DNA of 64,000 nt from Antedon mediterranea. Lineage: Eukaryota > Animalia > Echinodermata. Each line of letters begins with the position of its first letter. Position 1 is the stretch's first letter. Shown here piece after piece: positions 3,421 to 64,000 of the stretch. The stretch is from contig NC_092675.1 in NCBI RefSeq assembly GCF_964355755.1, forward strand, positions 30,414,912 to 30,478,911, given 5' to 3'. The position numbers and the translations under genes were made by a program. Below the pieces are notes generated by a model. The model was not told the origin of the DNA. It did not search any database and worked only from the letters and a program-made list of their open reading frames with translations.

Positions 3421-3674
3421 TTACTAAAATGGATTTATTCGCATATATTCCTAAAAATATATAGCTTGGTCTATGAGCAGCTGTTTGTAGACCGTTTGCC
3501 GCAAGCTGATTTAAATAGGATAATTATATTAAAACAAATATTATGACAAATTTGGACATGAACATTAGTGGTAATACGAAAGCGACAAAAACTCCTCTAA
3601 TAAACAATAATAATTATTTAGTTCAAGGCACATGGCCTACATTACACTCATTTAAATTTAAGTTTTGTTCAAGT

Positions 3675-6600
3675 TTACTGAACACTTTCATAAATGTCGC
3701 ATGATCCAGCAGCGCAGACGTTTGCCATTTCATAACACAACTCGTAATGCTTCTGTGGGAAAAAAACAACATTAGTTAACTAACAGATATCGAAATCTGC
3801 TTTTAAGGCCTTGTCAATCAATCAAAATTAGATAAATATTACGAAATGGAAAAAAGTTTAATATATAGTAACACTTTTTAGTAGTAAGTTTTAAATTCAA
3901 TGGTCTGGTTTCATATTTGTTTCCACCTCATAAGACCATACGCAAGCACGAAGACAATATTGGGGTTTTTTTTTTGGAATACACGCGATTTGATATTTTG
4001 AATGTTATCTCATTTTATATTTATATATTATATAAACCCCAATATTGTCTCCGTGCTTGCGTATGATCTTTTGAGATGGAATTACGTGGTATTATAAATG
4101 CTAAGGTTGCTTAATTATGAATAAAGTATAACGTAACTTGTGTGTATACATAACCTAGTTTATCAATACCGTGACAATCTACAATAAAACGTTACCTTTG
4201 TATCAAATAACGATGGAGAAACGCGTTTGATACGTTTCACTGTGTGGTAGACATCAACCAACGCGTCTTCATTCATCTTACGAACGATTATGTCCACTGC
4301 ACAGAAAAATCCACTTCGACTCTCGTCCCTTGAGTTACAATAAAAACAAAATATAACAGAATTACCCATTAAGATTGTTTTACTTAGGAAGAATCGTTGA
4401 CAAACAGAGAATGTGGATAATATTCATATATGAAGTATCGTGAATTTAGTTGTTCAGTTAACAACTTCTTCTTATACCTGTGTTGGATTAGTAATATCCA
4501 CTTGTATGCATTGTTGTTATGATTGAATTGTGCAATTGCAATTTACAGACAATTTTAAATAAAAAAGAAATCATCAAATGAAATTATTATAGCCTAGTCA
4601 TGTGTTATGTTGTAATCTGGATTATTGACGATATGTGAGTTTATGTGGTATAGTCTATTATTATGTTTTCGACATAAAAGTTTAATCAGTTTAAGTTTGT
4701 TAACTAGATTAGTCAAAACTAAGAAATTCATGCTTATCAAAATTAGAGTGGATTTCAACGATCATGTGACCGAATTACAAGCAGAATAGTTACTTACAAA
4801 CTAAAAACTGTAACATAGTCATCTCGATTATTAGTTCGTTGAACTTCTCTGACATCGTCACAGAATTGTTTAAAGTATCCAAGAGATGAAGGTTTCTGTG
4901 ATTCTTTAGGCCAGTCCAGAAATGTCAGGTGACATATCTCACGTGGTTTTGCATGATTCTGATTATTAAGTAATGTACAATAAAGTAGTGTTTTATCATA
5001 GGAAAATCTATTACTATAATATTATTAATAATTCTTTTTTTGCATTAAAAATAGACAGGATTGTATGCATTTTTCATATAAACTGGCCAATGCGAGAATT
5101 ACCTCATACTAATATATTATTTATTTCACTATGATGCAATCTTTTACAGCTTGACCAGTATTTTACATAGGTTTGAATAGTGTTATGATATTCTTCTTTT
5201 ACCTACTTACTTTAGTCAATTTTAGTGTTCGTTTTAAAACATAATCGTGCTTCTCAGAAGATAGAACTTCAACTGCAAATTGACCTTGTGTCATCTTACG
5301 TTCAGGAACAAGTGTAGCAATTCTCTAAATTGGAAATATCATAACTTGTATTTATTATGAAAAACCCTATTATAGATTAATAATGTTTAACAGTCAGTCA
5401 AGGAAAAGAAAAAATCCATCCATGAAGATTTAACAATTTAATCTGTATTTTAAATTTTATAAAAATCTAAATTAAATAATCACACTAATCTTATCATACA
5501 ATTTACTTTACCTTATAAACCTGCTCTTCGTCATCTAACATCACCACTGTATATGACTTGTAGTCATAAATCATCTCCCAGAAATTGGAAAATTCACTTA
5601 GCATTGATTCTCTTGGCACAAGATATTCATGCTGTGACTAACACAAAGAACATTACATTACTTATAAAATGCCCAACATGGAGTTAATAAATATATAATA
5701 GTAATCCTAACGACAATTTGAATTTAAGTTAGGCCTATGTATTATATTAAATTTCACCTTACCTTGGTACTCTTCGTATTGGAATATACAACATCTTCTG
5801 ACTCAACACCAATCAATAGAGGTTCTGCAACATTCACTATCAAATACAAAATCAACTTGAAAGAACATATATAAAACTATCTTAAACGGTTAATATCAAT
5901 TATAGAGTTAGTTTACTTATATAGTGACCATTTACCACTTACATTGCAGTGTTTTATCACTTTGTGTTTGCTTTGGAAGAAGAGCTTCAATGTTCTGTAA
6001 AAGACATAATAAATAAATAATGAAATTGTAGTAATCACTCTTAGCATGTTATATATATCATTGTAGTTTCATTTAACATGTACACATTAAAAATACTTTT
6101 TCTCAAGTAATGTCCAACCCCTAAAAAGTTTGTGTGATAAATCATGGTTTTAGTACAATCAATTAGATTCCTCTATGTATGCATGTAATCTTTCAAATGT
6201 AAAGTTTAATAGAATAAGCATAAGTTATGTCACCATACATTTATCTGTTCTTGAATAACTGGTCTTCCAAGTAAACTGTTTGTGTTTTTTATTTCTTTGT
6301 ATCGTTCAGAAATATCTGTTGATGGTATGCATGTTGCTTCACAAAATAAACACTCCAAAATCATCTCGTAGATAAACACATACTGGTTCTGAAAAAACAA
6401 AAACCATTGGCATGCAATTTACCCAAATAAAACTGTGAAAATGGAACATACTGGTTCTAAAAATTTAATACGACAATTAACGTCTTCATAACTTTTTTTA
6501 ACTGTTTAAAATGATAACAAGCTACATACCTCTTTCAAACGAATATGAGGGCAGCTACTAAGTGTATCTTTTACAAAGTTGAAAACATCAATCTCACTGC

Positions 6601-9600
6601 TTTCTTTAGCCAAATCTAGCATTGCGTTTACGGCGATGACAGTTCCAATTTTGTGGCAATCGGTACTTTGTAAGAGATAATAAATAGTTGATATTTATGT
6701 CGACCATATTATTACAAACTAAAATCGACTCATTAGATTTCCTTTTATGACATGACAACATACAGAGAAATAATGCAAAGTAAATGAACTTTTAATACCT
6801 ATAGACAAGTATTGGTCCAACTCCAAAGTCTTTCTTAGCTTTCCTTAAACTGTGTGTAAACTCAATAAGATGTGCAGACGTGTCCATAACATCTCCAGGC
6901 CATGCAGTGCAGTTATATTGATGGACAACACGAGGCGGCGATTCACGATTTTCCTGCGTAAAGAAGGTTAGTTATTGGCACTTTTTTTTTTCATAAATCA
7001 CGTTTGAATAATCATTTCTGATATATGTATATATCTATTAATTATAATAATAAATAAATAAATATTTCTTAACATTACCGTCAGAATTTCGAACTTGCTG
7101 GTTGTAAAACCATTGTCTTTTAATTGATCTTCAAGTTTTCTAACAGACACCTTTCCATATTTGGTGTTCATGTATCCAGTTCCTTTTTGCCAAAATGAAT
7201 TAACTTTGGTCTTTAAGGAGGAAATAGAACAAATGCTGGTCAGTGGATCCAATAAGAGAATTATAACAGAAGGCACTACTGTAACAATTACTCTGGAAAG
7301 AACTAATACTAACCAGTCTCCGTAGGAGTGGAGTGGAGCTGTGGCTTGGTGGTTATGATGCTTGGCTACCAATCTAAGGGTCCTGGGTTCAAGTCCTGTC
7401 ATATGTCAGGGTTTTTTTTCTCATGACAATTTACAACTCCACTCCACTCCCAAAGACTTAATAATAAGTCTTTGTTTATGTAGAGCATCTTGTGTATATG
7501 TTTGTCTTGTGAAATTTTAAATAGTTTATCCTGTAATTGGCGTGTTACTCGCTGTTGGATGAGTATGATATAAAAAAAAAAAAAAAAAAAAAAAATAGCG
7601 AGTGAGTGGCTAAGCGGTTAAGACAGTGGAACCGTAATACCAATAGCCATAACATCGGCAAGGTTACGAACCTCACTCGCTCCATGATACCGGTGGTAGA
7701 ACGTGTCTTAGATACGACTATAAACCGTAGTTCCAGATCTGTACACATCTAGCTCATGTGTACTTCACCTTGTACATCTTTCTAGACGAGTAGGGGGTTA
7801 CCCCGGTGTACTAGTATACACTCAGACACTGTCACACACATCCATTCATTGCCATTGTCATTGTCAACTCTTATTATATGTGTAGTTACTGTTTATTCCC
7901 AACTATATATCTATATTATTTGGAAAGCTTTTGACTACACACATACCTTGTCACCATCAAATGTACTATTAATTATTATATCGATGTTTTCTTTAATAAT
8001 AATTTCTAATAACTGTTTTCCTTGTCCATTACCTGTTAAGAAATTGAGTGCATGGTGTGCATATTTAATATATTCAATGAATAATAATTGACATACAGAA
8101 ATGAATTATCGCAGATTTAGATAAATATCGTTAAATATTTCATAATTATTTTATTCTAGTAATAATTATTTGTTGTAAAACATTATAATTTTAGCTAGAA
8201 TACAGTATAATAATGTTCTCACCATGAAAAGCAATATATGCATTCGATTTGTTCTAAGCATAAAAAGATAATTATCAATTATAATCGATTTAAATTGAAA
8301 ATGAATAAAAAAATATTTCAAATAATATATACATTTTGTGAAATTTAGATACAGAGGTGGTTTTACACATACACTGTTGATAATAATGTTATAACCTACA
8401 TTAATGTAGCAGGCGTTTGAACTGTGAGATTCACCATCTAGACGGAGACGAGCATACTCACTCTGGAGTTCCTATTTCAAATAAAAGTAAACGTTTTCTT
8501 TATGTTCTTCAGTTTATGTTACTTCTTAAGTTAGTTATATCTATGTTGTATTTGTTAACGCACTGTAATACAATTTCTGAATATCAGTTTTTTAAAATAA
8601 AAAACAAATGTTTTTATTTACTTTTCTAGATTTTAATGTGTTTCTTTTCTTGATTTACCTCAAACTCTGACCTAAACGTAAAGCTTGTTCCTTGTTTTCT
8701 GTTTCTGATGTACATGTGTAAATCCTTTATCTTGACAGGTCGATTGTAATCAATAAATTCCATAGCAACAGGATTCAATTGGTTTGCAATCACATAACCG
8801 TCTTGCATTTCTAATAGAAATAAATCACTTGACATTTATCAGTAATGACGAATTTATGTTAGTGAATTGTTGAGACATCGTGATATTTTTAGAAACATCA
8901 ATTCGCTAAATAAGCATTTCTTGTCTTCATCAAAAAATGTATTTATTTGTAAGTATAAAGATACCGTCATTAGTAACCAAGTAATCACATATATAGCTAA
9001 ATAATACTATATATTTGCATATATATACTGTATTAGTGCCAAATAGGGCCTATTGAAATTGAATAACTCAAATCAGAATCTAGGCCAAAAAACTTTTAGA
9101 GAAATGCAAGTGGTCATTAAGAAATACTTAAATTACTAGAATGAAATATATATATGTGTACACACCTATGTTATTGTCTATTTCATCTGTAATCTTCTTT
9201 GATCTTAATGTACTATAGTATTGAGAGAATGCTAAATTATTATATTAAAGAGATAACGTATTATAATGCCATATTCGTTAACAATGTATATAACTCAATC
9301 AATTAACCATAAATAACTTATCAACATTTTATTTGTTTGACATACACAGCTGATTGGTCGTATATACGTCGTATGTTTTTAAAGTTAATCAAAGGTGTGC
9401 TAGCTTACAACATTACTTACCTTTTTCTTTTGTAGTGCAACTTTTGTAAAACGACTACAATAATTAGGATGACGACACACGAGGTTAAAAGGCCAACTAT
9501 GCACCAAACGAAAACTTCTAAAGTCGTTTAAAATACAAAAATAGCTCCATAATTTTGTTAATAATAATATCCTGGATTTATATAGCGCTTAATGTTGTGA

Positions 9601-12600
9601 AACCTCTAAGCGCTCAACATTATTACCGGCCCCAGTCATTTTTTTTGGGATCAAACACGTAGGCCTATATATGGAGACATACTCCCATAATGCAGCTAGT
9701 AATCAGCGCAAAGTTGTGTCTTGATCAAACCGGGGTTCCCTGGGTGAAGAGAGGCAAACGTAAGTAAAGTATCTTCGCTAAGGATACAAGCAATGCGGTC
9801 AGAGTTGGATTCGAACCTCAAACGATCAGTAGTCGAACGTCCAACACACTGTGCCACACGCCCTTACGGCAGTCATTGTGGAGTTGAAAGTATGGTGTAA
9901 TTTCAAAAATACAAATACATTTAAAATAGAAATGGTTAAAACATGATAGTAATCACCTACTTGTATGTTTGAATGTAATCACAGTAAAGTCCTTTTTAGG
10001 ACCGATTCCTTTTGAAGTTCTTGCTTCAATCTCAAATGTATACATCTTAGTTGTGTCAATTCCATCTATGGTAGTTTGTGTTTCTGTATATCCCGTATTA
10101 TTCTCTTTAAGTTCCAATCCATCAAGAAACAGTTTATAATCGTAGGTTATTAAACCTTTTCTGTTGCCACATTTTGGAGGTTTCCATGATAAACTAATCG
10201 AGTTAATTGTTACAGACACAACTTGAAGTGATGTTGGAGATCCAGTTGGAACTAAATAAATAAAATAAATTTTCACAATAATTATTACCGCTATTACTCT
10301 AAATCTAAGTATTATTATGTTTTATCAAATACACTTTCGTAGGCCTAAGCTTCTAATACCGTAGACTAGAAGAGCACTAATAATCAATAAACTGTTCAAA
10401 ATTGTATTATGCCTACTTTAATCTATTTAATTTATCTACAAATTGTTTTATTTCGTATGCCGTAAGGTTTAAAATACTTACCACCTTCTTCTGTTTGTAC
10501 TGTATGAATATCTGATGGTTGTTTAGCTGAGTTGGATACTGAGATTACATGGATTTCATATTTGGAATATGCACTCAGATTTGAAATGATATACGAAGAA
10601 ATGTCGAAAGGACCTTCTTCTACGGCGTTCACATGTACGTCCTCGCACATATCAGCTTGTATTAGTTGGTAAGTGACATTGTACATGACAGGACAGTCTC
10701 CATTTTCCACTTCATTCCAAGTCAGGGAAATATTATTTGTCCCAGTAGTAACATTTATTTCATCAATTTTGCTTGGAACTAATAATGCATATTTTAAAAA
10801 TCAATTATAAAAAGTAAAGTTTAATTTATTGAGTAGAGAGTAGGCCTAGTTACAAAATAATCAGTTTACAACATTCTTATATAGCTATTATTTTTAACAG
10901 TCTGAGAGTAATGTTGAAAAAAATGGAGGTGGGTGGGTGATGAGATCGATAGGTCCAATCTTACTGAATCTAAATGGTAATACGGGTACACAGAATGTTT
11001 AACTTCCAAAACAGCATACGATTGAAAATTACGGCTATTAGTTTAAAAGAGATTTGTTTGACGTGTGTGTAAAGCAGTAGAGGCTACTGTCGTCTGTTTC
11101 CCACTGTGAGGGATGAAAAAACTTTTAGTTTTGAGAATTCATAAACTAATTAATACTAGGTATAATGCTAGATATGAAGAATTTTCATAAAAATAATGTG
11201 AATAAAATAAAAAATTATTACGCTTAAAGTTCGATTAGCGACAAAATGAATTGGTTTACCATTCGCGTGAGTTTCAACTGTTTCAATATTACTCCATGGT
11301 CCTTTGAATCCACCGTTGTTCTCTATTCGTACTTTGCATGTATACAACGTGCACGTTGTTAATCCATCAATTGTAGTCGATGTAACATCACTAACAGTGA
11401 TAGTTCTAGATTCGGAATCTGACTCACAATATACATCGTAATGAAAAATGTTGCACTGTATTTTCTCTGGATCATTATCAATTTTCTGCGTAAAAAAAAA
11501 CACACACATAACATATTCAATATCAATTAATAAAAGGCTGTAATTTATGATAACATAAACATGTGTACATTTGGGGGACATCAATTTCAATGTAATATAT
11601 TGATAATGATAAAGTATTTAAAATAATTTCTAATATCATACATTTTAATACTAAACAAAATTACAGAATTATCAACTCACCTTCCATGTTATGATTAATG
11701 AAGAAGAACTATCTGCCGAAACTGTAATATGTGGAGATACCAATGGACCTATAAACAAAATGTACCAATGTTAACCACAATGTTCACATATTTCTATTTT
11801 AATACGTACTCTTTTCCTGTTTATATTATGAAGGTTATAATTGATTTTTCTCACTTGAACATATAGTTGTTTCTGTCACAACTTGACTGTCTGGTCCACA
11901 CACATCTTGTCCGCCGATGTTCTTACAGACATGAACTTTGACCTCAATTGTTCGATTTGGCGGTAACCCAGTGATTGTAAAGACGTCATCAGTTGTTGTG
12001 ATTGTTGTAAATGTTGATTCTTCTTCACTTTTATATAACACTTGATAAGATGAAGCTGGTCCAGTTCCATAATCCTCACCAAAAGTCCAATTATATGAGA
12101 TGATCATATTGGTGGCTGTGACGTCAATGAATTTAATTTGTTTGAACAAGTAGGGCAAAGCTATGGGAATGAACGTTCAGATTTTATTTACCGTCAGCAA
12201 ATACTGATAATATTAGAGTTAGCACACACAGATCAATTCAAGTACGGTTATTTATTCTTTTAACAGTAAACCGTACATGTGTTCTGTTTTCATGACACTC
12301 CTTATCATGTAAATTGCGCATGTTTATAGTACGACTTCTCTTTCTAGATTGAAACATGTGAGAAGGAATATTATTTACAGAATGTATACTGGTAGAATTT
12401 AGAATTAGATAAAATGTTGATAGGGCGCATTATACTTACCACACACTGTATTATCTTTATAGTATTATTTTGTTTCTTTTTCTTACTATTTAGTATTTGT
12501 AATCAATGTGTGTGGTAAACAAATAAAAAATATTGCACATATAAAAAGGTTATCACATAAAAAGAACATCTTATATTAAAATGGAATTGGATAAAGTACA

Positions 12601-15306
12601 TAATATGAAAATGAGAAAAACATTGATTAATGCTCACCTATCTGGCAGTCGTTGCCACCCCATCCATCTTCACAGTTTCCACTATTACAGTAACCCGTAT
12701 TTTTATCACATGAGTATGACGTTGCACAGTGACAACTATACTGACAAAATTCACCAAACTTTCCATCAGGGCATGTCACGGGATCTGAAGAAAACAATTA
12801 TGAAAGATGTACTATGGATTTTATCAGTTCAGACTACTGGTTGGAAAGATGTTTTAACTGGCAAATTCAGGATCGAATGTTAAGAAATAAATATTTACCA
12901 AGACATTTGTTTCCCTCAAATGCGTTGATACATGTAGCAGCTCCACCTAAACATCCTCTTGAGTTGTCACAATTTGAACTGCAGCGACATTCTTGACTAC
13001 ACCCTGCACCGTATCTAGTCCCTGCACATGCTATTTTAAATAAATCAAAATAATAAGTAACTTTTATATCATGACTTGTAGCATTACTATTTAAAGTAAT
13101 ATTTTAAAGACAAACATACGACACACCTTGCTCACATGTATCACCATGGAAACCTGCATTACACGAACATCCAGCAGGATCTGGAGGACACAACATGTTT
13201 CCTGTGCATGATCCGCCGGTCGCGCACTTAATGCCGCATGTCCGGCCCCAGAGATTGTTTCCACATCCTGAAAAATAATAATGTTAGTTTACAACATTCA
13301 GTATTTTAAATGTAACTTATAAAAAAGTGCAATTCAGTTTAATAATAAAATGAAATTGGAATATGATTTTTTTATTTGGTTAGTCAGATTTTATACCAAA
13401 CGCTGACGCAAACATTTTGACAAATCGTGGACATATCGTATTTAACATTTTAATCTGAAACTTACTTTTTGTTGTCATAAGGTCAGTATCTGGCTTAGAA
13501 ATATTCCATTCATCAACCAAAAAAGTTTCAAATTGTTTCCATTTTGAAAGAAGGTAGGGGTGTGTGTAACTTGAGTTATTTTAGATTTGAGTGGTGCGTT
13601 TGGTTTAACAATTTATAAAATTATCCCTTCAAATACTCAATACAGTTTCCAGCAAAAATGTATAATAATTTTATCTGATTTAACTTCAATTCCATAATGA
13701 AATACTGGAATACTATAATATAGTGTAAATTCCAAATTCAAAATACCTTCAGAACAATCAGAACCTTTAAATCCTGGTGGACATACACATAATCCAGTCA
13801 CGTGATCACATATTCCTCCATTATAACAAACTGGACAATTGTCTTTACACTGTGGTCCATGTTTTCTTGTAGGACAACCTTCAGTAAAATAACACGACTT
13901 TATAATATGTTATAATATGTTCTGCTTTTTATACCAGTATCTTGAAAATAGTCTATTTACAAATTATAGAGATAGACGGATATTAAAACATATTTTTTAA
14001 CCCTAACCAATGCAATACAAATATCATTGACCCACCTCTGACAATCAATCTCATCATTGCATGTTTTCCGTTTCTTTCTTTGTAACATTCATATATTCCA
14101 GCATCACTTGTTCTGATATTATTAATAGTCAATGTATCTTTACCATTGCCTTCTGGTATGTCAACGTTGTTTAATTTCCATTTTAATTCTGATACACTGA
14201 TTGTGGTACGGACTTGTAAAGTCACGTGATCACCAATACTGGCTGTAATAAATCGTTGGATTGGAGTGACGTCAGCTAAAGAAATTTGATTTTAAAATTA
14301 AACAATTTGTATTAAAAGGTAAAGGTAAGAAACCCCAACCTTCTTCAGATCTATTGACCACGTTTAACCACTTTTCCCCGTTTTTTTTTTTGCAGATAAA
14401 AATCAGATAATTATCGTAGGCTGGTGTGGTGTAAAATAAAGATAATACTCTTCAAATCACAAATCTATAATGGTTATTAATGTGGTGTTTTCCTAACTTT
14501 ACTAAACATGTAAATATCAAAGTTGTAATGGTAATATCAAAATATCATTACTCAACATTGTTATGTTACTAAAGTAAAAATGGTGTATTAAAAAGAATGA
14601 CATCCAGAATTTCCCTTATTTAAATTGAGAAATACAACTTACCATTTTCAGGTAATATGATGATAGATATATCTTGTGATCTTGAATCTTTTGTAGCAGT
14701 CGCGAAGAAAGCGCCAACTTTTTCAGCACCCGATCCTGCATTGATTCTAACACGTAATGCGCTATATTCAGTTGTATCTTTTTGCTGTACTGTCGATCCT
14801 GTGGGGAACATGGTACCAGAAGGTACAGGTGCAGGCGTGTTTCCAGGTGCGTTAGCATCGTACCATGTTACAGGTCTTCCTTGTAACCCAGTGCCTGTGT
14901 CAACCTCTCTTCCAAGTGATATGTCTTGCGTTTTATCTGGTGTGCCAGCATAACCTCCAAATCTTGGTCCTATAGTTATTTCTTCAATGTCAACAGTTGG
15001 GTTGTCACACCACATAGTAAAATCAAGGATTTCATCTAAGTTAATTAAAGGAGATGATTATTGGTTGTGTGTGTGTGTGAATTATTTAGATTTACTGAAT
15101 ATAATAGATCGATATTCTATCAACAGAGGAAATAAAATACCATTTTGCAATTCATAACTTTACACTTTTAAAAATATTCTTTACACTATTAGGCTATTTG
15201 CTTGTCTAGCCTCTTTTATAATATAATTACATTGCTTACCTGATTGTACTTTACAAAACAAGACTAGGATAAACATGTTCACACGAATAACGTCTAACGT
15301 TAACAT
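3675..15306 (-). CDS. Gene A: multi-exon RPTP-like pseudophosphatase; SP, N-terminal Ig-like, Ig, 4 EGF-rich exons, 4 FN3, TM, degenerate PTP D1 and D2
   Basis: GT-AG exons spliced in frame: SP 15240-15306; N-domain 14643-15035; Ig 14036-14275; EGF 13747-13878, 13127-13267, 12899-13030, 12638-12784; FN3 11855-12160, 11681-11748+11260-11485, 10482-10778, 9961-10251; TM 9421-9517 (VFVWCIVGLLTSCVVILIIVVVLQKLHYKRKR); 9166-9203; 8659-8810; D1 8400-8471, 8223-8253, 7947-8032, 7079-7210, 6799-6953, 6530-6665, 6239-6388; D2 5943-5994, 5763-5837, 5521-5637, 5211-5324, 4798-4958, 4196-4328; last exon 3675-3752 ends SCDIYESVQ*. Confidence 0.88.
3923..4080. mobile_element. MITE-like inverted repeat in last intron of gene A
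   Basis: ~45-bp arms: CCACCTCATAAGACCATACGCAAGCACGAAGACAATATTGGGGTT and AACCCCAATATTGTCTCCGTGCTTGCGTATGATCTTTTGAGATGG. Confidence 0.65.
7329..7595 (+). mobile_element. tRNA-derived SINE with poly(A) tail
   Basis: A-box-like TGGCTTGGTGG, B-box GGTTCAAGTCC, unrelated body, A-run at ~7572-7595. Confidence 0.6.
7597..7865 (+). mobile_element. tRNA-derived SINE with Nin-domain-like core
   Basis: TGGCTAAGCGG A-box, degenerate B-box, core GACTATAAACCG...GAGTAGGGGGTTACCCCGGTG, CATT-type tail. Confidence 0.55.
9558..9865 (-). mobile_element. tRNA-derived SINE with Deu-domain-like core and L2-like 3' tail
   Basis: Minus strand: GTGGCACAGTG...GGTTCGAATCC head, GCCTCTCTTCACCCAGG core, tail AGCGCTTAGAG...AAGCGCTATATAAAT followed by (ATT)n. 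A related copy is at ~48700-48850. Confidence 0.65.
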
Positions 15307-16220: not shown

Positions 16221-16832
16221 CATATACGCTTCACAGGACAGACGCAATAAATAAAAAGAACGCTCGACTGTGAAGCTCACGGATTTCGAAGCATTGTAGA
16301 TAACTCGCATAATTTTCCCTGATACCCTCATTTATTTTAGTTCAACCTTAATGTCATCATAATCTGTCTTTGACCTGATTATTACAACTTATCCCTTTTA
16401 TTTCCGAACCCCTCTGCTACATTTTCAATCTTTGTTTTGTAAATGGCACCTTTCCTGACACCCTTAAACTAGCTAAAGTAACTCCTATTTTTAAAACTGG
16501 TGACAAATCTGATTCCAGTAATTACCGTCCTATATCAGTGCTACCGATCTTTTCCAAAATACTTGAACGCCTTATTTATGATCGAACATACAATTATCTT
16601 CAAAAAAATAGTATACTTTACAATAAACAATTTGGCTTTCGTAAGAACTATAATACATCCACCGCACTTCTTCAATTAACAAATGAAATTGTTGGGGCTT
16701 TCGAGAGGGGTGAATTTGCCATTGGTATTTTCATTGACCTCTCGAAGGCCTTTGATACAATTGATCACGATATTTTATTATATAAGTTACATACTTATGG
16801 AATCCGTGGCCCTGTATATAATTTATTCAAAA

Positions 16833-17080
16833 AAAAATCAAGATCAAATAAGTTAAAACTGCCTCAATATAGATTTATTTTAACGACATGTTTCGGGCAT
16901 AGCCCATCATCAGGTGAAAAGAATTGTAACAAAGGATAACATATATAAGTCACAAAATTACATAATAAAACAAATCAACCAATCAAAAATGTTAACAAAC
17001 AAAAGGCATAGTTATAAAGGCACGCCTCCAAAAGCTATGGTGTACAAAGCAGGAATGGTTGCTTATAAAGCAGGAAATTT
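16833..17080 (-). mobile_element. Penelope-like terminal-repeat fragment inserted in the LINE
   Basis: Flanked by direct repeat TAATTTATTCAAAA (16819 and 17081). Removing it rejoins ...GPVYNLFK|SYLSNRKQ. Contains a hammerhead motif followed by AATAAA. Confidence 0.65.
16878..16920 (-). ncRNA. Minimal type I hammerhead ribozyme-like motif
   Basis: Minus strand TTTTCAC-CTGATGA-T-GGGC-TAT-GCCC-GAAAC-AT-GTC-GTTAAAA: both conserved core boxes, stem II, palindromic ACATGT stem III, GUC cleavage triplet, imperfect stem I. Confidence 0.7.
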
Positions 17081-20000
17081 TAATTTATTCAAAAGCTACC
17101 TTTCAAACCGCAAGCAATGCACTAAATTTAAACACACCCTTTCTGATTTTCTTCCTATTATTTGTGGAGTCCCTCAAGGTTCCCTGCTTGGGCCTCTATT
17201 ATTTTTATTATACATAAATGATATCCATAATGCCTCAAATATGTTTTCTTTTCTGTTGTATGCTGATGACACAACCCTTATTTACACTGATAAAAATATA
17301 GATTCCCTTTTTAAAATATCAACCGAAAATCTACCCAAAATTTTAACATACTTTTCTGCAAACAAACTTTCTGTTAATCTAAAAAAGTGCTGTTGTATGG
17401 TGTTCAAAAATTCACAAATACCACTAAATACTAGTACTTTTAAACTAAAAATTAAAGATCAATTAATACCTATTGTTGAGAAAACTAAATTTCTTGGTGT
17501 TTATCTGGACTGTAAGCTAAATTGGAAACATCAGATTACTCAAGTCGAAAACAAAATATCCAAAAGTTCTGGTATCATATATAGATTATCATCTTTCATC
17601 CCTCAAAACATACTCCGGATTCTTTACTGTTCACTAATCCTCCCTTACCTCACTTACTGTAATATTATTTGGGGTAATACATACCCGTCCTACTTAAACA
17701 AACTGTTATTGATCCAAAAGAAAACCGTAAGATACATAGCAAATGCTCCTCCTTTATCCCATTCCAATCCTTTATTTTCTTCATTTGGTCTTCTTAAAAT
17801 TCAGGATATTAACCATCTTCAACAAAGTGTTTTCCTCTATTCATGGCTAAACTCGATCCTGCCATCACACTTTAATGATTTATTTAGTTTCAATCTTAAT
17901 TTTCATAACCACAGTACTCGGAGCGCAAATCAAATACGTATTCCTTTTTTTAAAACTACTTCTTTTAAACATAGCATTAAGTTCACTGGTCCTAAACTTT
18001 GGGATAACGTACCAGTTAATATAAAAAGTGCTTTGTCTAAGAAGAGTTTTTCTTTTAAATTGAAACGGCACCTCTTATCTAGTTATGTTTAATTATCCTT
18101 TCACTCATTGTAGTTTTGATATTTAGTCTTTTCGGTACCCTGAATCTAAAAGTCTTCATTACTGTTTTTGTCCTGTTTCCGGTTCCCGTTTTGTCCTGTT
18201 TTTTTTTTTTTCATTTTCTATGGGCTGCCTTATACAAGCTTTGCTTTTTAGGAATGTTGCCCCTCTTATTTCAATAATTTTTACTGCTAATTTTTATTTT
18301 CTATGAAAGACAAGAGAAATAAATGTTACTTTGATTGATATAGTTATACAGACATAGCAAATAAGGCTAAATTTATTCTCAAATATTAGGCAATCCAATT
18401 AGTTAATATTTATAATAACGAAATTATGTTTTCAATAATATTGATAATTGTAATTATAAGGACGAAAATACAACTGCATTTAACTATAGGCCTAAGGAAA
18501 ACTATTACTCAGAGTCGAATATGTTATAACTGTTGAAAGATCGAGGGCGTGTTTAATCATTCAATGATTATTCAACTTGCTCAAGAAATTTATTTTATTT
18601 CAGTGATAATGAAAGCCCATAGTCCAGATAATGATTGATTATCAGCCTTGTGACTAGACTACCATGTGTAAAAAAAGTTATTTAAAAAAAACATTTTAGG
18701 TACATATTACATGGAAAATATCTTGAGAAAATTGAGAAAATATCTAAGCTCAACCAGGAACTCGGGTGTTGAGCTTTGGGGCGGATTTATTTACATAATT
18801 AGGTCATTCATTGGTACGACGAGACATACTTTAACAAACAGTGTGAGATAGATAATAATAATATAAATATTTGTCCAACAATAACAGGAACTATTCGCTA
18901 ATAAACGAGTATTGGTTTCAGAATGCATATTTTTTTAATCGTAGGTTAGAGAGAGTTCCAGATTGGATCATGGATTCCGCGATATATGGAGATATAGAAG
19001 TGGAGTTGAAGTTGAATTAAATTTCACATTATTATTATTATATCTCATGTAACTCTTCAGGGTTACAACTTTTTTTAATGAAATGTTTCAGTAATTCAGA
19101 AAGCAATAATTCCGATGGCGAAGCGAAACAATTAAACCAACGACTAAAGCTACATTAATCTTACAACAGTGTATAGTAATTATCTAATTATTTTTTGTCA
19201 ATAAAACTTTAATTATGCTTTATTTTACTGATCAAATTAATTTACCTAAATATTGTTATGTCTTTGTGCCATGTGTCCTCACAAATCTTGTTTTACTGTT
19301 TAATTCCATTATATGTTATGTTGGGTTAACAGCTAAACTTGAACTTTAAATCTTTAAACGCAAATGTTATGTTGTCCTCCACGTAACCCCGACAAAAACA
19401 CTTCCTGGTACACTCCTTATCCGTTCTTATGTAATAATTGTTTTCAAGAATTGCAAGAACTAGATGGTACGCTCGCTTCGCTCGCGTACCATCTAGGTCG
19501 TGCCCACAGATGGTTCTCGAATACACAGTAATTTCAGCGTAACAAAACTGGCGATTTCAAATGTACGTACCGCAGGACTATATACATTGTCGTTTACAGA
19601 AACGAATAAATAGACACGATGATTTATGTAGTCAACTAAAATTAGCACCCTGGGAATTACTTCCGAAGGAGAAACTTATCACAAAATGAGTCAAAGTTTT
19701 TGATTTGGACTCATTTAAAGAAACCCAATTTGTGTTTTGTATGTAACATTAGGGTTCAGGGATGGGAAAGCGGATAGGTACAAAGAGGAACAATTTTTAA
19801 ATATATTCTTTATCCACTCAGTAACGAAATATTGTTTTAATGTTTTATAGGCCTATAAATAATACACAGTAAAGTAAGTATACAGTAAAACATTTGCGAT
19901 TTAATACTTTTTTTATTTTATTTATTTATTTATTTATTTCTTTTAAATAATCATTGTACACTAATTTTCCCCGTGTATGGCAAGAGATTCATAATTATAT

Positions 20001-27100: not shown

Positions 27101-28933
27101 CAGTATAGTTGTCATTGTGCCACCTCATCATCATGTAATAAAGATACGGGTTACTGCGATAGTGGAAACTGTGAAGATGGATGGGGTGGCAACGACTGCC
27201 AGATAGGTTGGTAAATTTTCCTATTCATCCACTACAGTATAACACACCTGAGTAGATTATTCTCATTATATTGGAGGATTATAGATCACAAAACATTCAA
27301 TAACTACTCCATTGAACTCTTACGTCATCATGTACGTTTCAAGATTCAAGATTCAAGAAATTTTATTTGTCCATAAAAATGGAAATTCACTTTGCTTGGT
27401 AGATTAAAACAACAATATTGCAACAATTTAAAAACGTGCAGTATTATAACAGATTAAAAATACAAGATAAAAAGTTAAAAATACTGTTAGAAATGTAAAA
27501 CTATTAAAAATGGCATTAACGTCTTACATTAGAATTAAAAATATGAATGCTATTTACAACGAAGGATTTTCTAGTTCTACAAAGATTTGCTCTTGGAGGT
27601 CGTAGCCTAATGCCTGATCTATTTAAGTTATAACAGTAATGTAACGGATGAGTGGGGTCTTTCATAATATTGTTTACTTTTTTTAGAATACTCTTTTCAT
27701 AGATAAATGAACAAGGCGTTAGATCAGCTTTAATAATACGTTGTGCAATTTTACGTGGTCTCTCAATATTTTTCTTATCATTTTCAGTAAAGTTACCATA
27801 AAAACATCCAATGCTAAAAGATAAAATACTTTGAATAATACTTTGATAAAATAGAATTAAAATAGTGTTATCAACTCTAATTTGCTTGAGTTTTCTGAGA
27901 AAGTAGAGCCTTTGAGATGCCTTCTTGGAAATCATGAGAGAGTTTGACTCCCATTTTAATTTGTTGTCAATTATAGTACCTAAGTATTTGTATTGGGTTA
28001 CTCTTTCAACCTCGGTTTCTTTAATAGTTATAACATTATGTTCAACTGCGGTTTTACGAAAATCTATTATCATCTCTTTGGTTTTAGTAATATTAAGTAT
28101 TAAGTTCATATCTTCACACCAATTAACAAATCTTCCAACTTCATTAACAAATTCATTTACATTATGCTTACTATCGCAAAGAAAAGCACTAATTACAGTA
28201 TCGTCAGCGTATTTTACAATATTGCAATCTTTACTTAAAATATTAAAACTACTAGAATAAAAAGAGAACAGAATTGGAGAGATAACACATCCTTGAGGAG
28301 CTCCAACACTGGTAGATTCTTTGTTGGATAGGATACCATTGCACTTAACCATCTGCGGTCTATTAATCAAAAAACTATATATAACTTTGGCGAGCTGAAG
28401 TGAGACATTAAAACTTAATAATCTATCAATTAAAACATGTGGTAAAATAGTATTAAAAGCACTGGAGAAATCAAAAAATATAGACCGTACATAATTACTT
28501 TTTGGTGATGATATGTATCATGGAGATAAGAATTAACAGCATCGTCAACCCCTCTATTTTTCTTGTATGCAAATTGATTCTTATCTGCATTACCAATATT
28601 TTCCTTAAGTCTAGAAACAATCAACTTTTCTAAGCATTTCATTAAATTTGAAGTAATTGCAATTGGTCTAAAATCTTTTGGTACACTAGGTTTATTAACT
28701 TTAGGCAATGGATTTATGATAGAAGTTTTCCATATGCGTGGAACAGTACCATTTCTAAAAATAATATTAAAAATATGAGTAAAAATTGGACATAGTTGGA
28801 TATTGCACGCTTTTAAAATTCTGTTTGAAATCCCATCTGGTCTAGTTGCCTTATTGAGTTTTACACGTGCAAATTCTCTTAAGACCGCGTCTTCATTAAC
28901 AAGAACATTATTATTATCATCATTAACAATATT

Positions 28934-28970
<37 letters not shown>

Positions 28971-52700: not shown

Positions 52701-55700
52701 TGACCAAACAAAGGAGCAGGATACACATTTGCCTTGCCACAGACGACCGGGTGCTCAGAGACAACAACCAAGACAGAGGCACCCCAAAGATAATGCTGGC
52801 CAGGAAAAGGTATACAAAACAATTCTAAGTCTAAAAAACTTTAAGAAACCTCATGATTTCCATATGCCTTAATAATAAATGTGTTTTTAATAATTTTTTA
52901 AAAGTATCAACAGTTTTGCAAAATCTTATAGAGCTCGGTAGAGCATTCCACAGACGAGGAGCAGTAACGGAGAATGCTCTTTCACCCCATGAGTGGTGAG
53001 ACTTAGGCTGATGTAGAAGCAGCGAGTCACTAGAACGCAGATTACGTCCGGGAACATACAGCCTAAGCATGTCAGAAATATATTCAGGAGCCATGCCATT
53101 TATAGACTTAAAAACAAAGAGTAATATTTTAAAAACAATGCGGTACCTAACAGGGAGCCAATGCAATATTTCCAAAGTATTTGATATGTGTCCATATCTT
53201 GGTAATTTTTTAACAACTCGTGCCGCTGTATTTTGAATCAGTTGGAGCCTGTGGAGTTGTTTTTGTGGTAGCCCGTATAGCAAAGAGTTTCCCATATCTA
53301 GTCGTGAAGTGACAAAAGCATGAACAAGTTGTTTAGCTGCTGTCTCATTCATAAACTTGCGAATCCTTCGAATGTTTCGCAAGTGAAAAGACGACGCAGA
53401 AATAGTTTTGGAGATATGAGAAATCATAGTCATACCCACATCCATTTCAACCTGCCTAGCCGGGTCAATTTGGGTTTCACCAATGTGAATAAAGCTTGGT
53501 GGCAGTTTTTCCAACTGCTGTTTTGATCCAAAGAAAACAAATTCTGTTTTTTCATCATTTAATTTAAGAAAGTTGTTTTTCATCCAGACACGCAATTCAT
53601 AGATACAATGTTGGAGCAATTCCAAAGAAATGATCAATGTTGTATATTAATCAGACTGTTGTTTTTTTACTTTAAAAATTACATTTTAAGTACTTCATCC
53701 AAATATACACATTTAAAATTGTTAGGCCTAAAATTGTTATTATAGGTTTTGATCGACCTAATTAAGAGGGAGCTTTTCATTTGCGACGATTTACAACCTA
53801 TCAAGAAATCAAGCGAAGAAGCACGTCCTAATACTTTCACATACTAACTATTCACTAGTTTTTATGTCGTCACAAATCAAAAACTCCATAATATTTATTC
53901 ATAATATGCACAACACAAATATTATTTCGATAGTACTTCTATTAGATTCTTCATTCTTATATTTTACTTATTAACATAATTTGATGATATAAGACATTTT
54001 ATTCATAGCAATGTTATGTTACCGTACATTTATCTCTTCTTGAATAACAGGTCTTCCTAGTATACTTCTTTTGATTTGTATTTCCTTGTACCGGTCAGGG
54101 AAGTGTGCCAATGATATGTTTGTTGCTCCGCAAAACAAACACTCCAAAATCATCTCATAGATAAATGCATACTGGTTCTGGAAAAAAATATAAACAATCA
54201 TTTTCTTCCATGCAGTACATGATTAAAACTGAATAAAATAATAACGATACATACCTCTTTCAAACGAATATGAGGACAGCTACTAAGTGTTTCTTTGACA
54301 AAGTTGAAAACATCAATCTCACTGCTTTCTTCTGCCATATCGAGAATTGCGTTTACGACGATGACAGTTCCGGTTCTCTGGCAATCGGTACTTTGTCACA
54401 AAAAGAGAAATATGGAAGTTTTAACAGGTTCAATTCACTAAGAAATAATGTAAAATAAATGGATGTTTAAAATACCTATACACAAGTGTTGGTCCAACTC
54501 CAAATTCTTTCTTAGCTTTCCTTAAACTGTGTGTAAACTCAATAAGATGTGCAGACGTGTCTATAACATCTCCAGGCCATGCAGTGCAGTTATATTGATG
54601 GACAACACGACGCTCTGAATCACTTTCATTTTTCTGCAAAGTAATAAACAAAATGGATTTAGTGAGTACATTGTGATATTGAAGTAAATCAAGATAGCGG
54701 TAATGAAATCAGTAACATTAGTTATGTTGCTAACTAGAAAAATATTGTAATATATACTAAATATTTATCAAAAATTACCAGCATAATTTCGAACATTTTG
54801 ATTGTAAAACCATTGTCATTCTGTTTATCTTCCAGTTTTCGAACAGACATCTTTCCATATTTGGTCTTTACGTATCCAGTTTCATCATGCAAAAAAATGA
54901 CCTTTGAAATGCGTAAACAATATTTTAATAGTTCATTATTAATATTTTTAAAAATGTATTAATTATATTAAAATTTAAAAAATTTTGTCTTCTAAATTCC
55001 TTCAAAACACTTCGAGAGAATCAACACCATTACTATACTGTGGGAAGTATTGGATAACAAAACTTCATACCTTGTCGCCATCACATGCAATATTAACTAT
55101 TACATTCAGGTTTTCTTGCCAAAAAATTTCCAATAATTTTTTTTCATTGCCTGTTAAAAGCAATAAAGCAGAACAAGCATTAAATAAGCCCATTTTTTAA
55201 ACTGGTGCTACAGGACTTTTTTATTTTATAAGATGATATTTAATAACTTATAAGTGCTGACCGGGTAACTATTTATTAAATAGTATTTTCTTGTTTTGTA
55301 AAATTGTTCTTTCTATTATATATTCTTTTTGTTCTAAGAATAATAATATTGTTCTCACCATGATAAGCAATGTATGCATTCGGTTTTCCCTGAGAATTAG
55401 AATATGTTGGAAATACAATTAAAAGTGAATAGAAAATAATAGTAAAAAGTTAATAGTGAAAAGAAAATTGTCAACAATGTACATTACTGAAGATTACAGA
55501 TTGTACATATGATGATATGATATACTTACATTGATGTAGCAGGCGTTTGGATTGTCACATTTACCATCTGCACGGCAACATGCATATTGACTATGGAGAT
55601 CCTATAGCAAAAACACAACAACATACAGATATTGCCTGCTTAGAGGTGAAATATAAGATTTGGTAATGAGGTAATGATATTTTGCTCAAGGAAAAATATA

Positions 55701-58700: not shown

Positions 58701-61700
58701 TTGAAAAGACCAATACAAAATAGGGTGTGTGTTGTTCAGTTAACATGCATTGAAAAGACCAATACAAAATAGGGTGTGTGTTGTACAGTTAACATGCATT
58801 TGAAAAGACCAATACAAAATAGGGTGTGTGTTGTTCAGTTAACATGCATTGAAAAGACCAATACAAAATAGGGTGTGTGTTGTTCAGTTAACATGCATTT
58901 AAAAAGACCAATACAAAATAGGGTGTGTGTTGTTCAGTTAACATGCATTGAAAAGACCAATACAAAATAGGGTGTGTGTTGTACAGTTAACATGCATTTG
59001 AAAAGACCAATACAAAATAGGGTGTGTGTTGTTCAGTTAACATGCATTGAAAAGACCAATACAAAATAGGGTGTGTGTTGTTCAGTTAACATGCATTTAA
59101 AAAGACCAATACAAAATAGGGTGTGTGTTGTTCAGTTAACATGCATGGAAAAGACCAATACAAAATAGGGTGTGTGTTGTACAGTTAACATGCATTTGAA
59201 AAGACCAATACAAAATAGGATGTGTGTTGTTCAGTTAACATGCATTGAAAAGACCAATACAAAATAGGGTGTGTGTTGTTTTGAGAAGAGGCTTATATTT
59301 TTTGTTCTTACATGACTCTTATTTAATGCTTTTTGGCTAATATCCTAGATGTCTGGATTTGTAAAGAAATTTTATTTATTATACTAATGCTCACCTATCT
59401 GGCAGTCGATACCAGCCCATCCATCTTCACAATCCCAGCAGTAACCCGTATCTTTATCACATGACGATGACGTTTTACAATGACAACTATACTGACAAAA
59501 TTCACCAAACTTTCCATCAGGGCATGTCACATGATCTTCGGAAAAACAGAAAGAAAATGTAAAACAGTATGCAACAAAGAAACCTTGCATACGACGTCGG
59601 CATATAGAATTGCTGTTTATATTGTACAATGATAGAGTAACGCAAATTGCCAGTTAGTGATAACTGGACGTGAATTAAGTGTAATAATACATTTAATTTA
59701 CCAAGACATTTGTTTCCTTCAAATCCATTGTTACATGTAGCTCCTTCTCGACATCCTTTTTCTTTGTCACAATCAGTTGAACTACAGTGACATTCTTGAC
59801 TACAACCTGCACCATACGTAGATCCTGTACATGCTATTTTGTGAAAGTATAATTTTAATAAACGTGTATGTAAATCCTGTCTCCATTTCTGTAGAAATGC
59901 CTGCTTGAGATGAAAACAGGTTATTAATAATTATATTGAAATTATAATTGTAACCTACCTTCATCACATGTAGTACCATGGAATCCTGTCGCACACGCAC
60001 AGCCAACTGGATCTGGAGGACACAGTAAACTCTGACAAGGAGAGGAGCAATAAATACTACATGACCGACCATAATATCCGGTACTACATCCTATAACATG
60101 ATAATATTAAAATGTCACTAATGTAAAAAAACACTAAATATAGCATAACTAGAAAACAATACTTTTGTACTTAATTACCTTCTGAGCAATCAGCACCTTT
60201 AAATCCTGCTGGACAGATACATAATCCAGTCACGTGGTCACATAATCCTCCATTATAACAAACCGGACAATTGTCATTACACTCTGCTCCATGTTTTCTT
60301 GTGGGACAACCTGATTTTTAGTAAATATATTATATTTTTTTTTTACTTTTTGAATCGTTTTCAATTATAACTAAATTTACCTGGTGTAAAAAATGAACAC
60401 ATGTATACTTGGTTCTGTATCAACCAACTGAAGATTTAAAAAAATGTCAAAAACTAACCTCTGACAATCATTCTCATCAGCGCATGTTTTCCGTTTCTGT
60501 CTTTGTAACATTCGTATATTCCAGCATCACTTGTTCTGATATTATTAATAGTCAATGTATCTTTACCATTGCCTTTTGGTATGTCAACGTTGTTTAATTT
60601 CCATTTTAATTCTGATGCATTGATTGTGGTACTGACTTCTAACGTCACGTGATCACCAATACTAACGGTAATAGATCGACGTTGGGGAGTGACGTCAGCT
60701 GGAAATATAATATAATAAGTTGTCGAAGTTACAAGATAATAAAATTCGGAGCTGGAAAATATCAACAAATGTTGCGAGTAGTTAATTATATTATACCCAC
60801 CTGCCTCCACTCATTTATATTTCTACTAATCTATTACAAAAACATATCTCACCATTTTTAGACAATATGATGAAAGGTATGTGTTGAGATATTGAATCTT
60901 TAGTTGCAGTGGCAAAGAAAGCACCGACTTTTTCAGCGTCTGACACAAGAATATCAATTGTTATGGAATGTACACTTGACGTAACTCGTGTTCTTACAGT
61001 TGATTGGTCCGGGAACATCGTTCCAGAAGGAACCAAGCCACCATCATTCCAATTTACTGCTCTTCCATATAACCCAGTTCCTGTATCGCTTTCTCTTCCA
61101 AGTACGATATCAGTAGTTTTGTCAGGAAAAGTGGTATAACCACCAAACATGGTTGATTCCATCGTAGAATCAATGTCCACGGTTGGATCTGGACACATAA
61201 CGGTTAGATCAAGGATTCCATCTAAAAAGTAATTTATTTTTAAGTTATTTTGTTTGTTTTAACATTAGCATATTATTTTCGGGTTTTTTTTTCTTTTAAA
61301 AGGAAGTAAAATATTTTTAAAAAGTATCATAGTCATAGTTTGTCATTGGATTAGTGTTATTTGTGCGTGCCATGGTCTTCAGAAGCATAATTTTGTAAAA
61401 ATAATATATTTAATAAATTGTGAAAATAATTAATACTATGGCAAAATACACCCTAATGATATATTTACCATGCAAAGAACATCGAACACCAGCTTCACTA
61501 TTAGGGTCGCAGTCGTGAATTCCAATACCATTTGATGGACATTGATTCAGACCAGTCTCTGTACCAACACATGCAACATTATCCAGCAAAATATCACCAG
61601 ATCCCTGCCCAGATTCCTGCCCAAAATCTGTACCAATTAGTGCTTCGCTGAGGCCTGTGTACAACAAAGAATTGCAGACAACGGTGGCATCTTGAACACC

Positions 61701-64000
61701 CCATGAATCATCACAGATTGTCCCCCATTTACCCTGGTAAAATATCTCGACACGGCCCTCTAAAGCTGTGGTACTTCCAGCAAGACGAACTACAAGATAT
61801 TAATTAACAGTTAACACTTGATTAAACAAAAACTGTCCACGTAAACAACTTAACATTCCACTGTATTCAGTATTTTGTTTCATTATTTTATGTTTACTGT
61901 CGTTTAATAGTGAGTCTGTTACATTCCTAAATGTATAGTTTTACCAACACAGAGAGGGAATTTCTTCCGTTCACTAAGGCCTTTAATATTTTGAAAATAG
62001 TGTAAAACATTAATTTATTTCTAATCTCCTGATTTGTTTGTGGATTTTGAGATCAAACAACGATTACCTATAATTATGTAGACATAGACAACGTATCGTA
62101 AATTATGTCAAAACAGCTTCAGTAAACTAATTGTTAAAATTGAGCATTTATTATTTCATTTTTTAAAAGAAAAAAAACCCATTATGATCATGCTTGATGT
62201 TGTCGAAAGCGACCTCATTTAAACGAGAAAAATATAAAATATTTACTTGATTGGAAGAATGATTGGAATCAATAGCATTAATACATACAATTTGAGCAAG
62301 GTGTTACAAACCTTTTGGCATACAGCGGACTCCAGCATCATTTTGGTGTCCGCACGATGACGTCAGAACACTATGGCCACACAGATGTAATCGTGGCTCA
62401 GTACCAGTACATTGAACACTAGTGAAGTGGATCGGACCGACTCCTTCACCAAATTTAGATCCAGTCACGGCAGAAAGAGCATCCGGGTAGTCTAATTGAC
62501 GACAGACGACTTTTGCATCTTTCTGGTCCCATTCGTTATCGCAAACCGTACCCCATTGACCGTCCTTAAATACTTCAATACGGCCCTCGCTTTCCAGGGT
62601 GCCTCCTCTAAATCGAAGGGTAGCTGTAGGAAAAAACAAACATTGTAAATGTATTATGTGGCAATCATTGGATGAATAGGTCTATACGAATACATGTCGG
62701 AACATTATTATCTGTTTTGCCCTACATCTATATTATAAGTGAGAGAGTTTGTTTGTTTGTTTGTTTGTTTTTTCGTTATACAAATTTGTGTTACTGCACG
62801 TAACCTTACATATTGAGCATCAAAATTACCGCAATTGTACCGGGAAGGTTCTAAACTACATTTGAACATCATCCACCATCTTGGATCCAAGTTAGGGGCT
62901 GAAATGTGGTCAAAATGGCCCACTTTTGATGTTTGTTCGTTATACAAATTTCTGTTCCTGCATGTAACCATACATATGGGTTATCAAAATGATCGCAATT
63001 GTACTGGGAAGGTTTTAAACTTCATTAAAAAAAAGTCCGGGGATTTGGTTGGAGAGGGGGTGGAGGGTTGGGAGATAGGGTGTGAGAGTTGGGGTTCAGG
63101 GTATAGTGGGATTTTGCTTAGGCTAGGGGTAGTAGGCTATCAAATTGACCAGAAATGTGGTAGGAAATTATTAAAGTATTTTAATTATCACTGGGAAGGG
63201 GATGGGAGTTTGGGGTGGGGATGTAGGCCTATCACCATGACTGAAACTGTACTGGAACGGAATGTTTTGATTATGGGTTGGGAGTGATGGCTAACATTAT
63301 TTGTACTGGAACTATCTTAAACACATCACCCAGTATCTGGGGTGTGTTGGGAGGGGGAGGAGGAGCGAAAATACTGGCGTAATGAAGTAGCCTATGATTT
63401 TAATTGTACTAGGAAGATTACTACATTTGAACTCTTCAGGAGAGGAGTTTGTTGATTGTGGCTGGGATGGTAAAAGAAGAAAGAAGGCTGGGGGACCGCA
63501 GTATCAAAATGAGATATTTTAATTATCAGCCAATATGACACCTATTCATTTACACAGATTACAACGTACTTAAACCATAGGCCTATCAGACCCCACTCAT
63601 TTTGAAGCTAACGTTTAATTGAATTTGTTTGTTTTTTTTTCAAAAAGAGTGTGGGGTGTTATTGAAGAAAGATGGAGGTTGATGAGTATATAGTGCATCG
63701 GGCTTTATGTACTGAGAAGGCTTCTCAACACTAATTTTGAAACCCGCCCTGGGGCGGGTATTATTGCTAGTATATCTATATTTATAAAAAGATTTTCTTA
63801 CAAATTCCGCAAACCACGCCAGCGTCTTCTTTATGACTACAATCATGTACATTCAAACCATTGTTGTCACAATCAAGGATATTGCTCTCTGATCCAGAAC
63901 ACGCTACATTATCAAGCAGGATGGGTGAGCCAGCATTCCCTTCACCATATGTGGCACCATTTGGAGCCTGAGTAGCATCTACATACCCTAGCTGACGGCA
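49760..64000 (-). CDS. Gene C (5' end beyond window): SRCR x3 or more, N-terminal Ig-like, Ig, 4 EGF exons, 3 FN3, TM, degenerate PTP D1 and D2 pseudophosphatase
   Basis: SRCR exons 63802-64000 (partial), 62312-62623, 61469-61789 (GRVE..WGTICDD.W); N-domain 60853-61221; Ig 60459-60698; EGF 60179-60310, 59959-60090, 59702-59833, 59395-59535; FN3 58356-58664, 57779-58084, 57321-57611; TM 56877-56981; 56375-56535; D1 55530-55601, 55359-55389, 55071-55150, 54779-54901, 54476-54633, 54255-54390, ~54028-54177; D2 52443-52494, 51908-51984, 51616-51723, 51109-51222, 50641-50801, ~50077-50209; last exon 49760-49840 ends SCDIYESINL*. Confidence 0.87.
52525..53640 (-). mobile_element. 5'-truncated L2-like LINE (RT C-terminal region and 3' tail) in a gene C intron
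   Basis: WMKNNFLKLNDEKTE, AFVTSRLD, LQLIQNTAAR, LHWLPV, RAFSVTAPRLWN; L2-type 3' end GCGCCTTGAGCAC...GTGCGCTATAAAAAT followed by (TTA)n. Confidence 0.88.
55643..55787. mobile_element. Short MITE-like inverted repeat
   Basis: GGTGAAATATAAGATTTG...ATGATATTTTGCTC mirrored by GAGCAAAATATCAT...CAAATCTTATATTTCACC. Confidence 0.55.
58687..59280. repeat. Minisatellite, about 12 copies of a 49-50 bp unit
   Basis: CAGTTAACATGCATT(T)GAAAAGACCAATACAAAATAGGGTGTGTGTTGT(T/A), near-identical copies with no spacers. Confidence 0.95.

Follow-up and report, generated by a model that had tools for sequence, protein, structure and literature searches.

Putatively inactive receptor tyrosine phosphatase paralogues beside an active neighbour in the crinoid Antedon mediterranea: candidate decoy partners or paired receptors

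Human PTPRU is a receptor protein tyrosine phosphatase (PTP) with a MAM-type ectodomain, and is described as the only human receptor PTP in which both phosphatase domains are dead. One study (PMC7320164) presents it as an R2B receptor with two pseudophosphatase domains that has kept its catalytic Cys, the residue through which a backdoor disulfide can form. Its first phosphatase domain (D1) is 69% identical to its paralogues, and PTPRU was proposed there to be a decoy for PTPRK. In a 64-kb stretch of the Antedon mediterranea genome (the whole of which is referred to as the window), we found three receptor PTP genes, A, B and C. Gene B retains all of the D1 catalytic motifs, whereas A and C have lost them and carry ectodomains that resemble that of B. 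We propose that A and C may be decoy partners or paired receptors of B. A search of mostly open-access texts found no literature on the three genes.

The exon chains, assembled by hand, are free of stops and show GT-AG ends and consistent phases. According to these models, A and C appear to encode tandem-domain receptors, with an ectodomain, one transmembrane helix, D1 and the second phosphatase domain (D2) in frame. The exons from the membrane to the end, 17 in A and 16 in C, contain no stop or frameshift. A preliminary description of the window had pointed to a D1 catalytic core rewritten in the same way in A and C, and the coordinates it gave coincide exactly with exon ends. Where B retains KNRY, WPD, HCSAGVGR and MVQT(Q), D1 reads WPGDV, GPILVYS/TDCHKIG and IRLKE in A, and WPGDV, GPTLVYS/TDCQRTG and IRLKE in C (the slash marks an intron in the P-loop). 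The HCx5R signature with its nucleophilic Cys is therefore absent from both genes (LVY-STDCHKIG and LVY-STDCQRTG), as had been claimed. The reported loss of the general-acid Asp was also borne out; the loop has become WPG-DV, which is itself one residue short, with an Asp still present one place later. The loss of the Q-loop Gln holds for the first, water-positioning residue, because IRLKE replaces MVQTQ, but the second Gln, in NQY, is retained. The P-loop is indeed shorter by one residue, and the lost codon can be placed. The exon downstream of the P-loop intron is 136 nucleotides long in all three genes; therefore, the lost codon lies upstream, at the His-Cys pair, where the CAT TGC AG of B corresponds to TAT AG in both A and C. 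The simplest path between the two would be a single transition together with deletion of the Cys codon. The P-loop Arg is retained in C and is Lys in A. Two P-loop glycines are substituted, one of them by Asp, and both conserved Arg residues ahead of the Q-loop are gone. The relatives used for comparison were the 150 best hits in a representative library, 147 of which span the D1 P-loop. Cx5R is retained in 146 of these and the deletion of A and C occurs in none, which argues that the rewrite is not due to chance. These losses support the view that the D1 domains of A and C are catalytically dead. Copying of the D1 Q-loop from D2 was considered as a source of the new letters and rejected (15/36 vs 13/36 matches; 60/136 vs 73/136 over the whole exon).

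The damage extends beyond this core. The KNRY phosphotyrosine-recognition loop is missing from D1, and neither A nor C has an equivalent of the exon that carries it in B (41645-41732). A remnant of this exon was sought in both genes and none was found; the Tyr in SEYA/SQYA is ambiguous as a trace of it. The D2 domains of A and C also lack KNRY and have a P-loop one residue short; in this loop, C still has the Cys (VCSL) and A does not (VFSL). The deletions amount to about 29 residues of the N-terminal half of D1, plus the D2 KNRY segment. Among columns at least 85% conserved in 54 relatives, scored over the part spanned by the C protein, C retains 13/28 in D1 and 16/31 in D2, and B retains 60/61 and 31/31. 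However damaged, the tail is predicted to fold still as a tandem PTP unit. Pfam recognizes the PTP fold in both tail domains (PF00102, E 6e-44, two stretches). An AlphaFold model of the 413-residue C fragment, computed from a 57-sequence alignment over the region after the N-terminal half of D1, has a predicted local distance difference test score of 85.6 and a predicted template modelling score of 0.85, and its best match is the tandem D1-D2 of LAR (TM score 0.70). The C-terminal tyrosine motif is YESV or YESI in the dead tails and YGNF in B, and YxN occurs near the C-terminal end in 88 of 149 relatives. The dead tails contain one YxxV/I motif, without the residue at position -2 of an immunoreceptor tyrosine-based inhibitory motif (ITIM).

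Splicing was compared with run X1, which comes from one study and is guessed to be RNA, over positions 3600-7030 of the window. The X1 contigs span exons. On the D2 side, five introns are spliced out of them, exactly where predicted or a few letters away, and these joints are absent from the two DNA runs. At the P-loop intron, the YS/TDC junction is spelled by the loose ends of two and one X1 contigs, with overhangs of 16 and 12 letters, and the X1 depth next to this intron equals the exon-only expectation (71.8 vs 71.8). The RefSeq model of C has the same junction. The model of A begins downstream of the intron, and XP_071953134.1, from another copy, links ectodomain to D1 in one model and ends within the P-loop intron, into which it reads. 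An alternative splice form that restores HCx5R, the outcome by which the preliminary description could have been overturned, was rejected; no His-Cys codons are present close to the donor, and use of the next closest acceptor would lead into a stop. The acceptor of the P-loop intron is an uncommon AAG in all three genes (6666, 43666 and 54391), which may explain why the RefSeq models are split. The models of dead receptors are labelled there as ordinary phosphatases or "uncharacterized".

In a tree built from 24 rows picked from the top hits, A, C and RefSeq XP_071953450.1 form a single clade (100/100) with a stem of 1.05 changes per site and tips of 0.06-0.18. This clade is nested in a larger crinoid clade, to which B and genes of Anneissia also belong (100/99), and the approximately unbiased test gives p=0.078 for an Antedon-only dead clade. 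Word-based and HMMER searches, which short or unannotated genes could escape, found no dead copy outside Antedon, including Anneissia. There are at least three dead copies, namely A, C and a further RefSeq copy outside the window. The latter is represented by XP_071953134.1 and XP_071953450.1, which may derive from a single gene that was divided in two at the P-loop intron. Some DNA contigs have a different sequence in the P-loop exon, a hint that further copies exist. Another Antedon protein close to B, XP_071954377.1, reads WVD, HCSDGVGR and KNRF; it is possibly a second, independent drift from activity.

The shared changes had been taken to imply a single inactivation that was then conserved. 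The first half of this statement is supported by the single clade, and the second holds for the tail as a whole rather than for the rewritten motifs. By maximum likelihood, the ratio of nonsynonymous to synonymous change (dN/dS) between A and C is 0.52 over the whole tail (p=6e-5), indicating moderate purifying selection, with values of 0.58 for D1 (p=0.011) and 0.43 for D2 (p=0.001). For the two D1 core exons it is 0.62 (p=0.32). The rewritten motif sites are common to A and C at 10 of 13 positions, compared with 68 of 76 nearby sites (p=0.20), and special conservation of these sites was rejected. Since the sharing is at the background level, it shows common descent or conversion rather than special selection on the new motifs. 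A simulated neutral tail stayed free of stops in <2% of 2000 runs at 0.05 changes per site. For four of six introns, the alignment of A with C is no better than that of shuffled sequences, yet identity in the core exons reaches 91%, which suggests that exchange also took place between A and C.

The ectodomains have a different history from the tails. The proteins of A and B are identical at 215/263 positions in the ectodomain, compared over the first module of B (B1), and at 208/533 (39%) in the tail. Between A and B, the Ig-EGF modules show 79-82% identity, comparable to the 77% between A and C. Among conserved residues, 18/122 fourfold sites distinguish A from B in the ectodomain vs 39/75 in the tail (p=4e-8), and the comparison of C with B gives 27/115 vs 38/67 (p=1e-5). 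The A-B difference climbs towards the membrane, from 15% and 16% to 36%, 48% and then 52%; the exchange with B thus spans only the stretch that begins with Ig and includes the second FN3, and weakens closer to the membrane. The exons of this region are under strong selection (dN/dS 0.27-0.32). In a tree of the ectodomain, the Antedon modules cluster apart from those of Anneissia with moderate support (80/87, unstarred), and B1 is the partner of A (88/95). The fourfold contrast and the grouping of modules by species indicate that the exchange of ectodomains is much more recent than the split between active and dead tails.

We estimate a probability of about 0.55 that A and C act as decoy partners or paired receptors of active B. 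This reading is based on the loss of motifs, the open frames, the selection on the tail, and an ectodomain that is far closer to B than the tail is. The locus also has the layout of paired receptors, with clustered genes, matched ectodomains and unlike tails. A and C would bind ligands of the same class as B without dephosphorylating anything. Recombination or gene conversion would hold their ectodomains matched to B, and the dead receptors would compete with B or dilute it. The folded dead tail could serve as a scaffold, and its C-terminal YESV/YESI, in place of YGNF, may draw a different SH2 partner.

Several points weigh against this proposal. Within the module, divergence is greatest in the N-domain (58-65% identity), a candidate site of ligand binding, and this argues against a simple same-ligand reading. 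Gene C is without one FN3 and likely carries SRCR domains. Exchange among clustered genes can also yield matched ectodomains as a by-product. In the N-terminal half of D1, dN/dS is 0.67 and not significantly below neutrality (p=0.17). The overhangs at the P-loop junction fall below the bar of 31 letters and come from a single study, and the X1 contigs differ from gene A at the P-loop by 6 and 11 mismatches in 138 letters; therefore, they represent alleles or paralogues of A. RefSeq contains no full-length dead receptor, the models of A and C beginning inside the tail, and the RNA coverage spans part of the tail rather than a transcript that runs from ectodomain to tail.

A more specific form of the proposal is tentative. 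Through YESV/YESI, the dead twins would answer the ligand that elicits dephosphorylation by B with a phosphotyrosine signal instead, with ectodomains matched by conversion, as a paired-receptor system of an invertebrate deuterostome, possibly in immunity or self-recognition. Considerably less probable than the decoy reading is that A and C have a separate function as scaffold receptors, and that their likeness to B in the ectodomain is a by-product of recombination in the cluster. Purifying selection on the tail, stronger in D2 than in D1, is consistent with this idea, as are the long stem followed by slower change and the alteration of the tail motif to YESV/YESI from the YxN common among relatives. 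D2 domains are able to recruit partners, according to one account (PMC9640194). On the other hand, the exchange is confined to exons under strong selection, from Ig to the second FN3, which fits shared ligands without proving them. It is improbable that the tails are slowly decaying remnants and that these genes serve to make an ectodomain, either truncated or anchored in the membrane. The deletions in D1 and D2, the absence of significant constraint in the N-terminal half and core of D1, and the dead-receptor models split or truncated in RefSeq would suit such decay. However, the tail exons have remained free of stops and frameshifts while most A-C intron pairs became unalignable beyond shuffles, and the X1 depth beside the P-loop intron is that of spliced exons alone. 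It is very unlikely that the dead D1 traps phosphotyrosine as STYX or EGG-4/5 do; pseudophosphatases can be competitors or anchors (PMC8269279), and C keeps the P-loop Arg, but KNRY, two P-loop glycines and both Arg residues ahead of the Q-loop are lost, and A has Lys for Arg.

The Cys of STDC had been credited with a possible redox or structural role. It is common to A and C, as stated, and occupies the position of Val in HCSAGVGR. PTPN12, PTPN18 and PTPN22 also have Cys at this position, as do 3 of the 147 relatives, active ones included. The redox part of the claim is unsupported, and the residue is likely a bystander substitution. We give very little credence to a redox switch or relocated nucleophile; although the Cys appears in the X1 junction read and PTPRU D1 is a redox-sensitive pseudophosphatase (PMC7320164), redox behaviour there relies on the catalytic Cys that A and C have lost, sharing of the new Cys is no higher than background, and this Cys is followed by x-K or x-R instead of x5-R. 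In the model of the C fragment, helix 80-99 starts with this Cys.

The features of the window are collected in Table 1. Three SRCR exons upstream of the C module are likely part of gene C, and the gene likely runs on past the window edge. A split pair of FN3 exons is common to A and B and missing from C. The Anneissia relative XP_033099347.1 has a partial repeat of the ectodomain module, as gene B has a full one. The D2 half of gene A is identical to RefSeq XP_071953135.1 at 282/282 aligned residues, and the last 413 residues of C are identical to XP_071953853.1 (413/413).

Table 1. Features of the three receptor PTP genes and other frames in the window
Feature	Coordinates	Strand	Remarks
Gene A	15035-3675	minus	Hand-built exon chain
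A, ectodomain	9961..15035	minus	Unnamed N-domain, Ig, four EGF-like exons and four FN3, in 11 exons altogether; no exon for a signal peptide located
A, transmembrane exon and short juxtamembrane exon	9166..9517	minus	Helix without charged residue
A, juxtamembrane and D1 N-terminal half	7079..8810	minus	Exons 8810-8659, 8471-8400, 8253-8223, 8032-7947, 7210-7079; no KNRY exon
A, D1 exon	6799..6953	minus	WPD loop now WPG-DV; ends GPILVY-S, single Tyr for His-Cys pair; Pfam Y_phosphatase positions 129-174, E 0.004
A, P-loop intron	6666..6798	minus	133 nucleotides, phase 2, GT...AAG as in B and C
A, D1 exon	6530..6665	minus	P-loop STDCHKIG, helix, Q-loop turned into PHIRLKE
A, exon	6239..6388	minus	Second Q-loop Gln (NQY) and D1-D2 linker
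A, D2 exons	3675..5994	minus	KNRY absent; P-loop VFSL-DESRSG; C-terminal DIYESVQ
A, D2 exon, alternative ends	5512-5521, 5631-5637	minus	Two in-frame donor/acceptor choices; RefSeq and X1 take the longer acceptor
Gene B	24107-47633	plus	All D1 catalytic motifs, ectodomain module twice, tail DIYGNFK; RefSeq XP_071952916.1
B, ectodomain modules	24107-34804	plus	N-domain, Ig, EGF, FN3 module in two tandem copies, mutual identity 63%
B, D1 core exons	43127-43290, 43667-43802	plus	
Gene C	at least 61221-49760	minus	Ectodomain module to stop; frame open; tail DIYESINL
C, transmembrane and first juxtamembrane segments	56877-56981	minus	Single exon; A uses two
C, D1 core	54255..54633	minus	Exons 54633-54476, 54390-54255; WPG-DV, LVY-STDCQRTG, IRLKE: rewrite as in A
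SRCR exons (three)	61469..64000	minus	Upstream of C module; Pfam SRCR E 2e-26, 1e-29, 5e-15; splice sites
Long frame	16379-18089	plus	Resembles a reverse transcriptase fragment of a long interspersed element (LINE)
Long frame	52834-53646	minus	Inside an intron of gene C; also resembles a LINE reverse transcriptase fragment

Compared with known systems, A and C fall among the crinoid Ig-EGF-FN3 receptor PTPs (B, XP_071952916.1; XP_071954377.1; Anneissia XP_033120974.1 and XP_033099347.1), with which they share exon structure and ectodomain module. In contrast to A and C, B and Anneissia XP_033120974.1 retain KNRY, WPD, HCSAGVGR and MVQT. A pseudophosphatase D2 that retains the fold with altered catalytic motifs is a feature of receptor PTPs; in A and C, however, the membrane-proximal D1 is the more damaged domain, and no intact active site is left.

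Paired receptors, such as Siglecs and KIRs, contrast an ITIM tail with adaptor coupling through a charged helix. The Antedon genes resemble the paired immune receptors CD300A/CD300C (PMC12447643) in their clustering, matched ectodomains, unlike signalling tails and signs of exchange. Unlike in such pairs, the contrast here is between an active and a dead enzyme. No transmembrane helix in the three genes has a charged residue, and there is no canonical ITIM or immunoreceptor tyrosine-based activation motif (ITAM). The cluster may thus represent a paired-receptor design in which loss of the enzyme takes the place of ITIM/ITAM swapping.

The comparison with PTPRU is functional rather than familial. 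Both cases have tandem D1-D2 domains, a non-catalytic D1 and a close active paralogue, with the phosphotyrosine, WPD and P-loops disrupted. A and C differ in having no catalytic Cys, deletions in three loops, only 39% tail identity to B and at least three copies, and their inactivity is predicted from sequence. Pfam gives Ig, EGF, FN3 and SRCR domains and no MAM, and the Ig-EGF-FN3 ectodomain has been exchanged with the active gene; together with the lost Cys, this places A and C outside the R2B type. By analogy, they would work like PTPRU, with an independent origin outside its family. The Antedon cluster would then be an independent, more extreme and multi-copy case, lying next to an intact twin with an exchanged ectodomain, and A/C with B form a natural dead/active pair in which the decoy model proposed for PTPRU can be tested.

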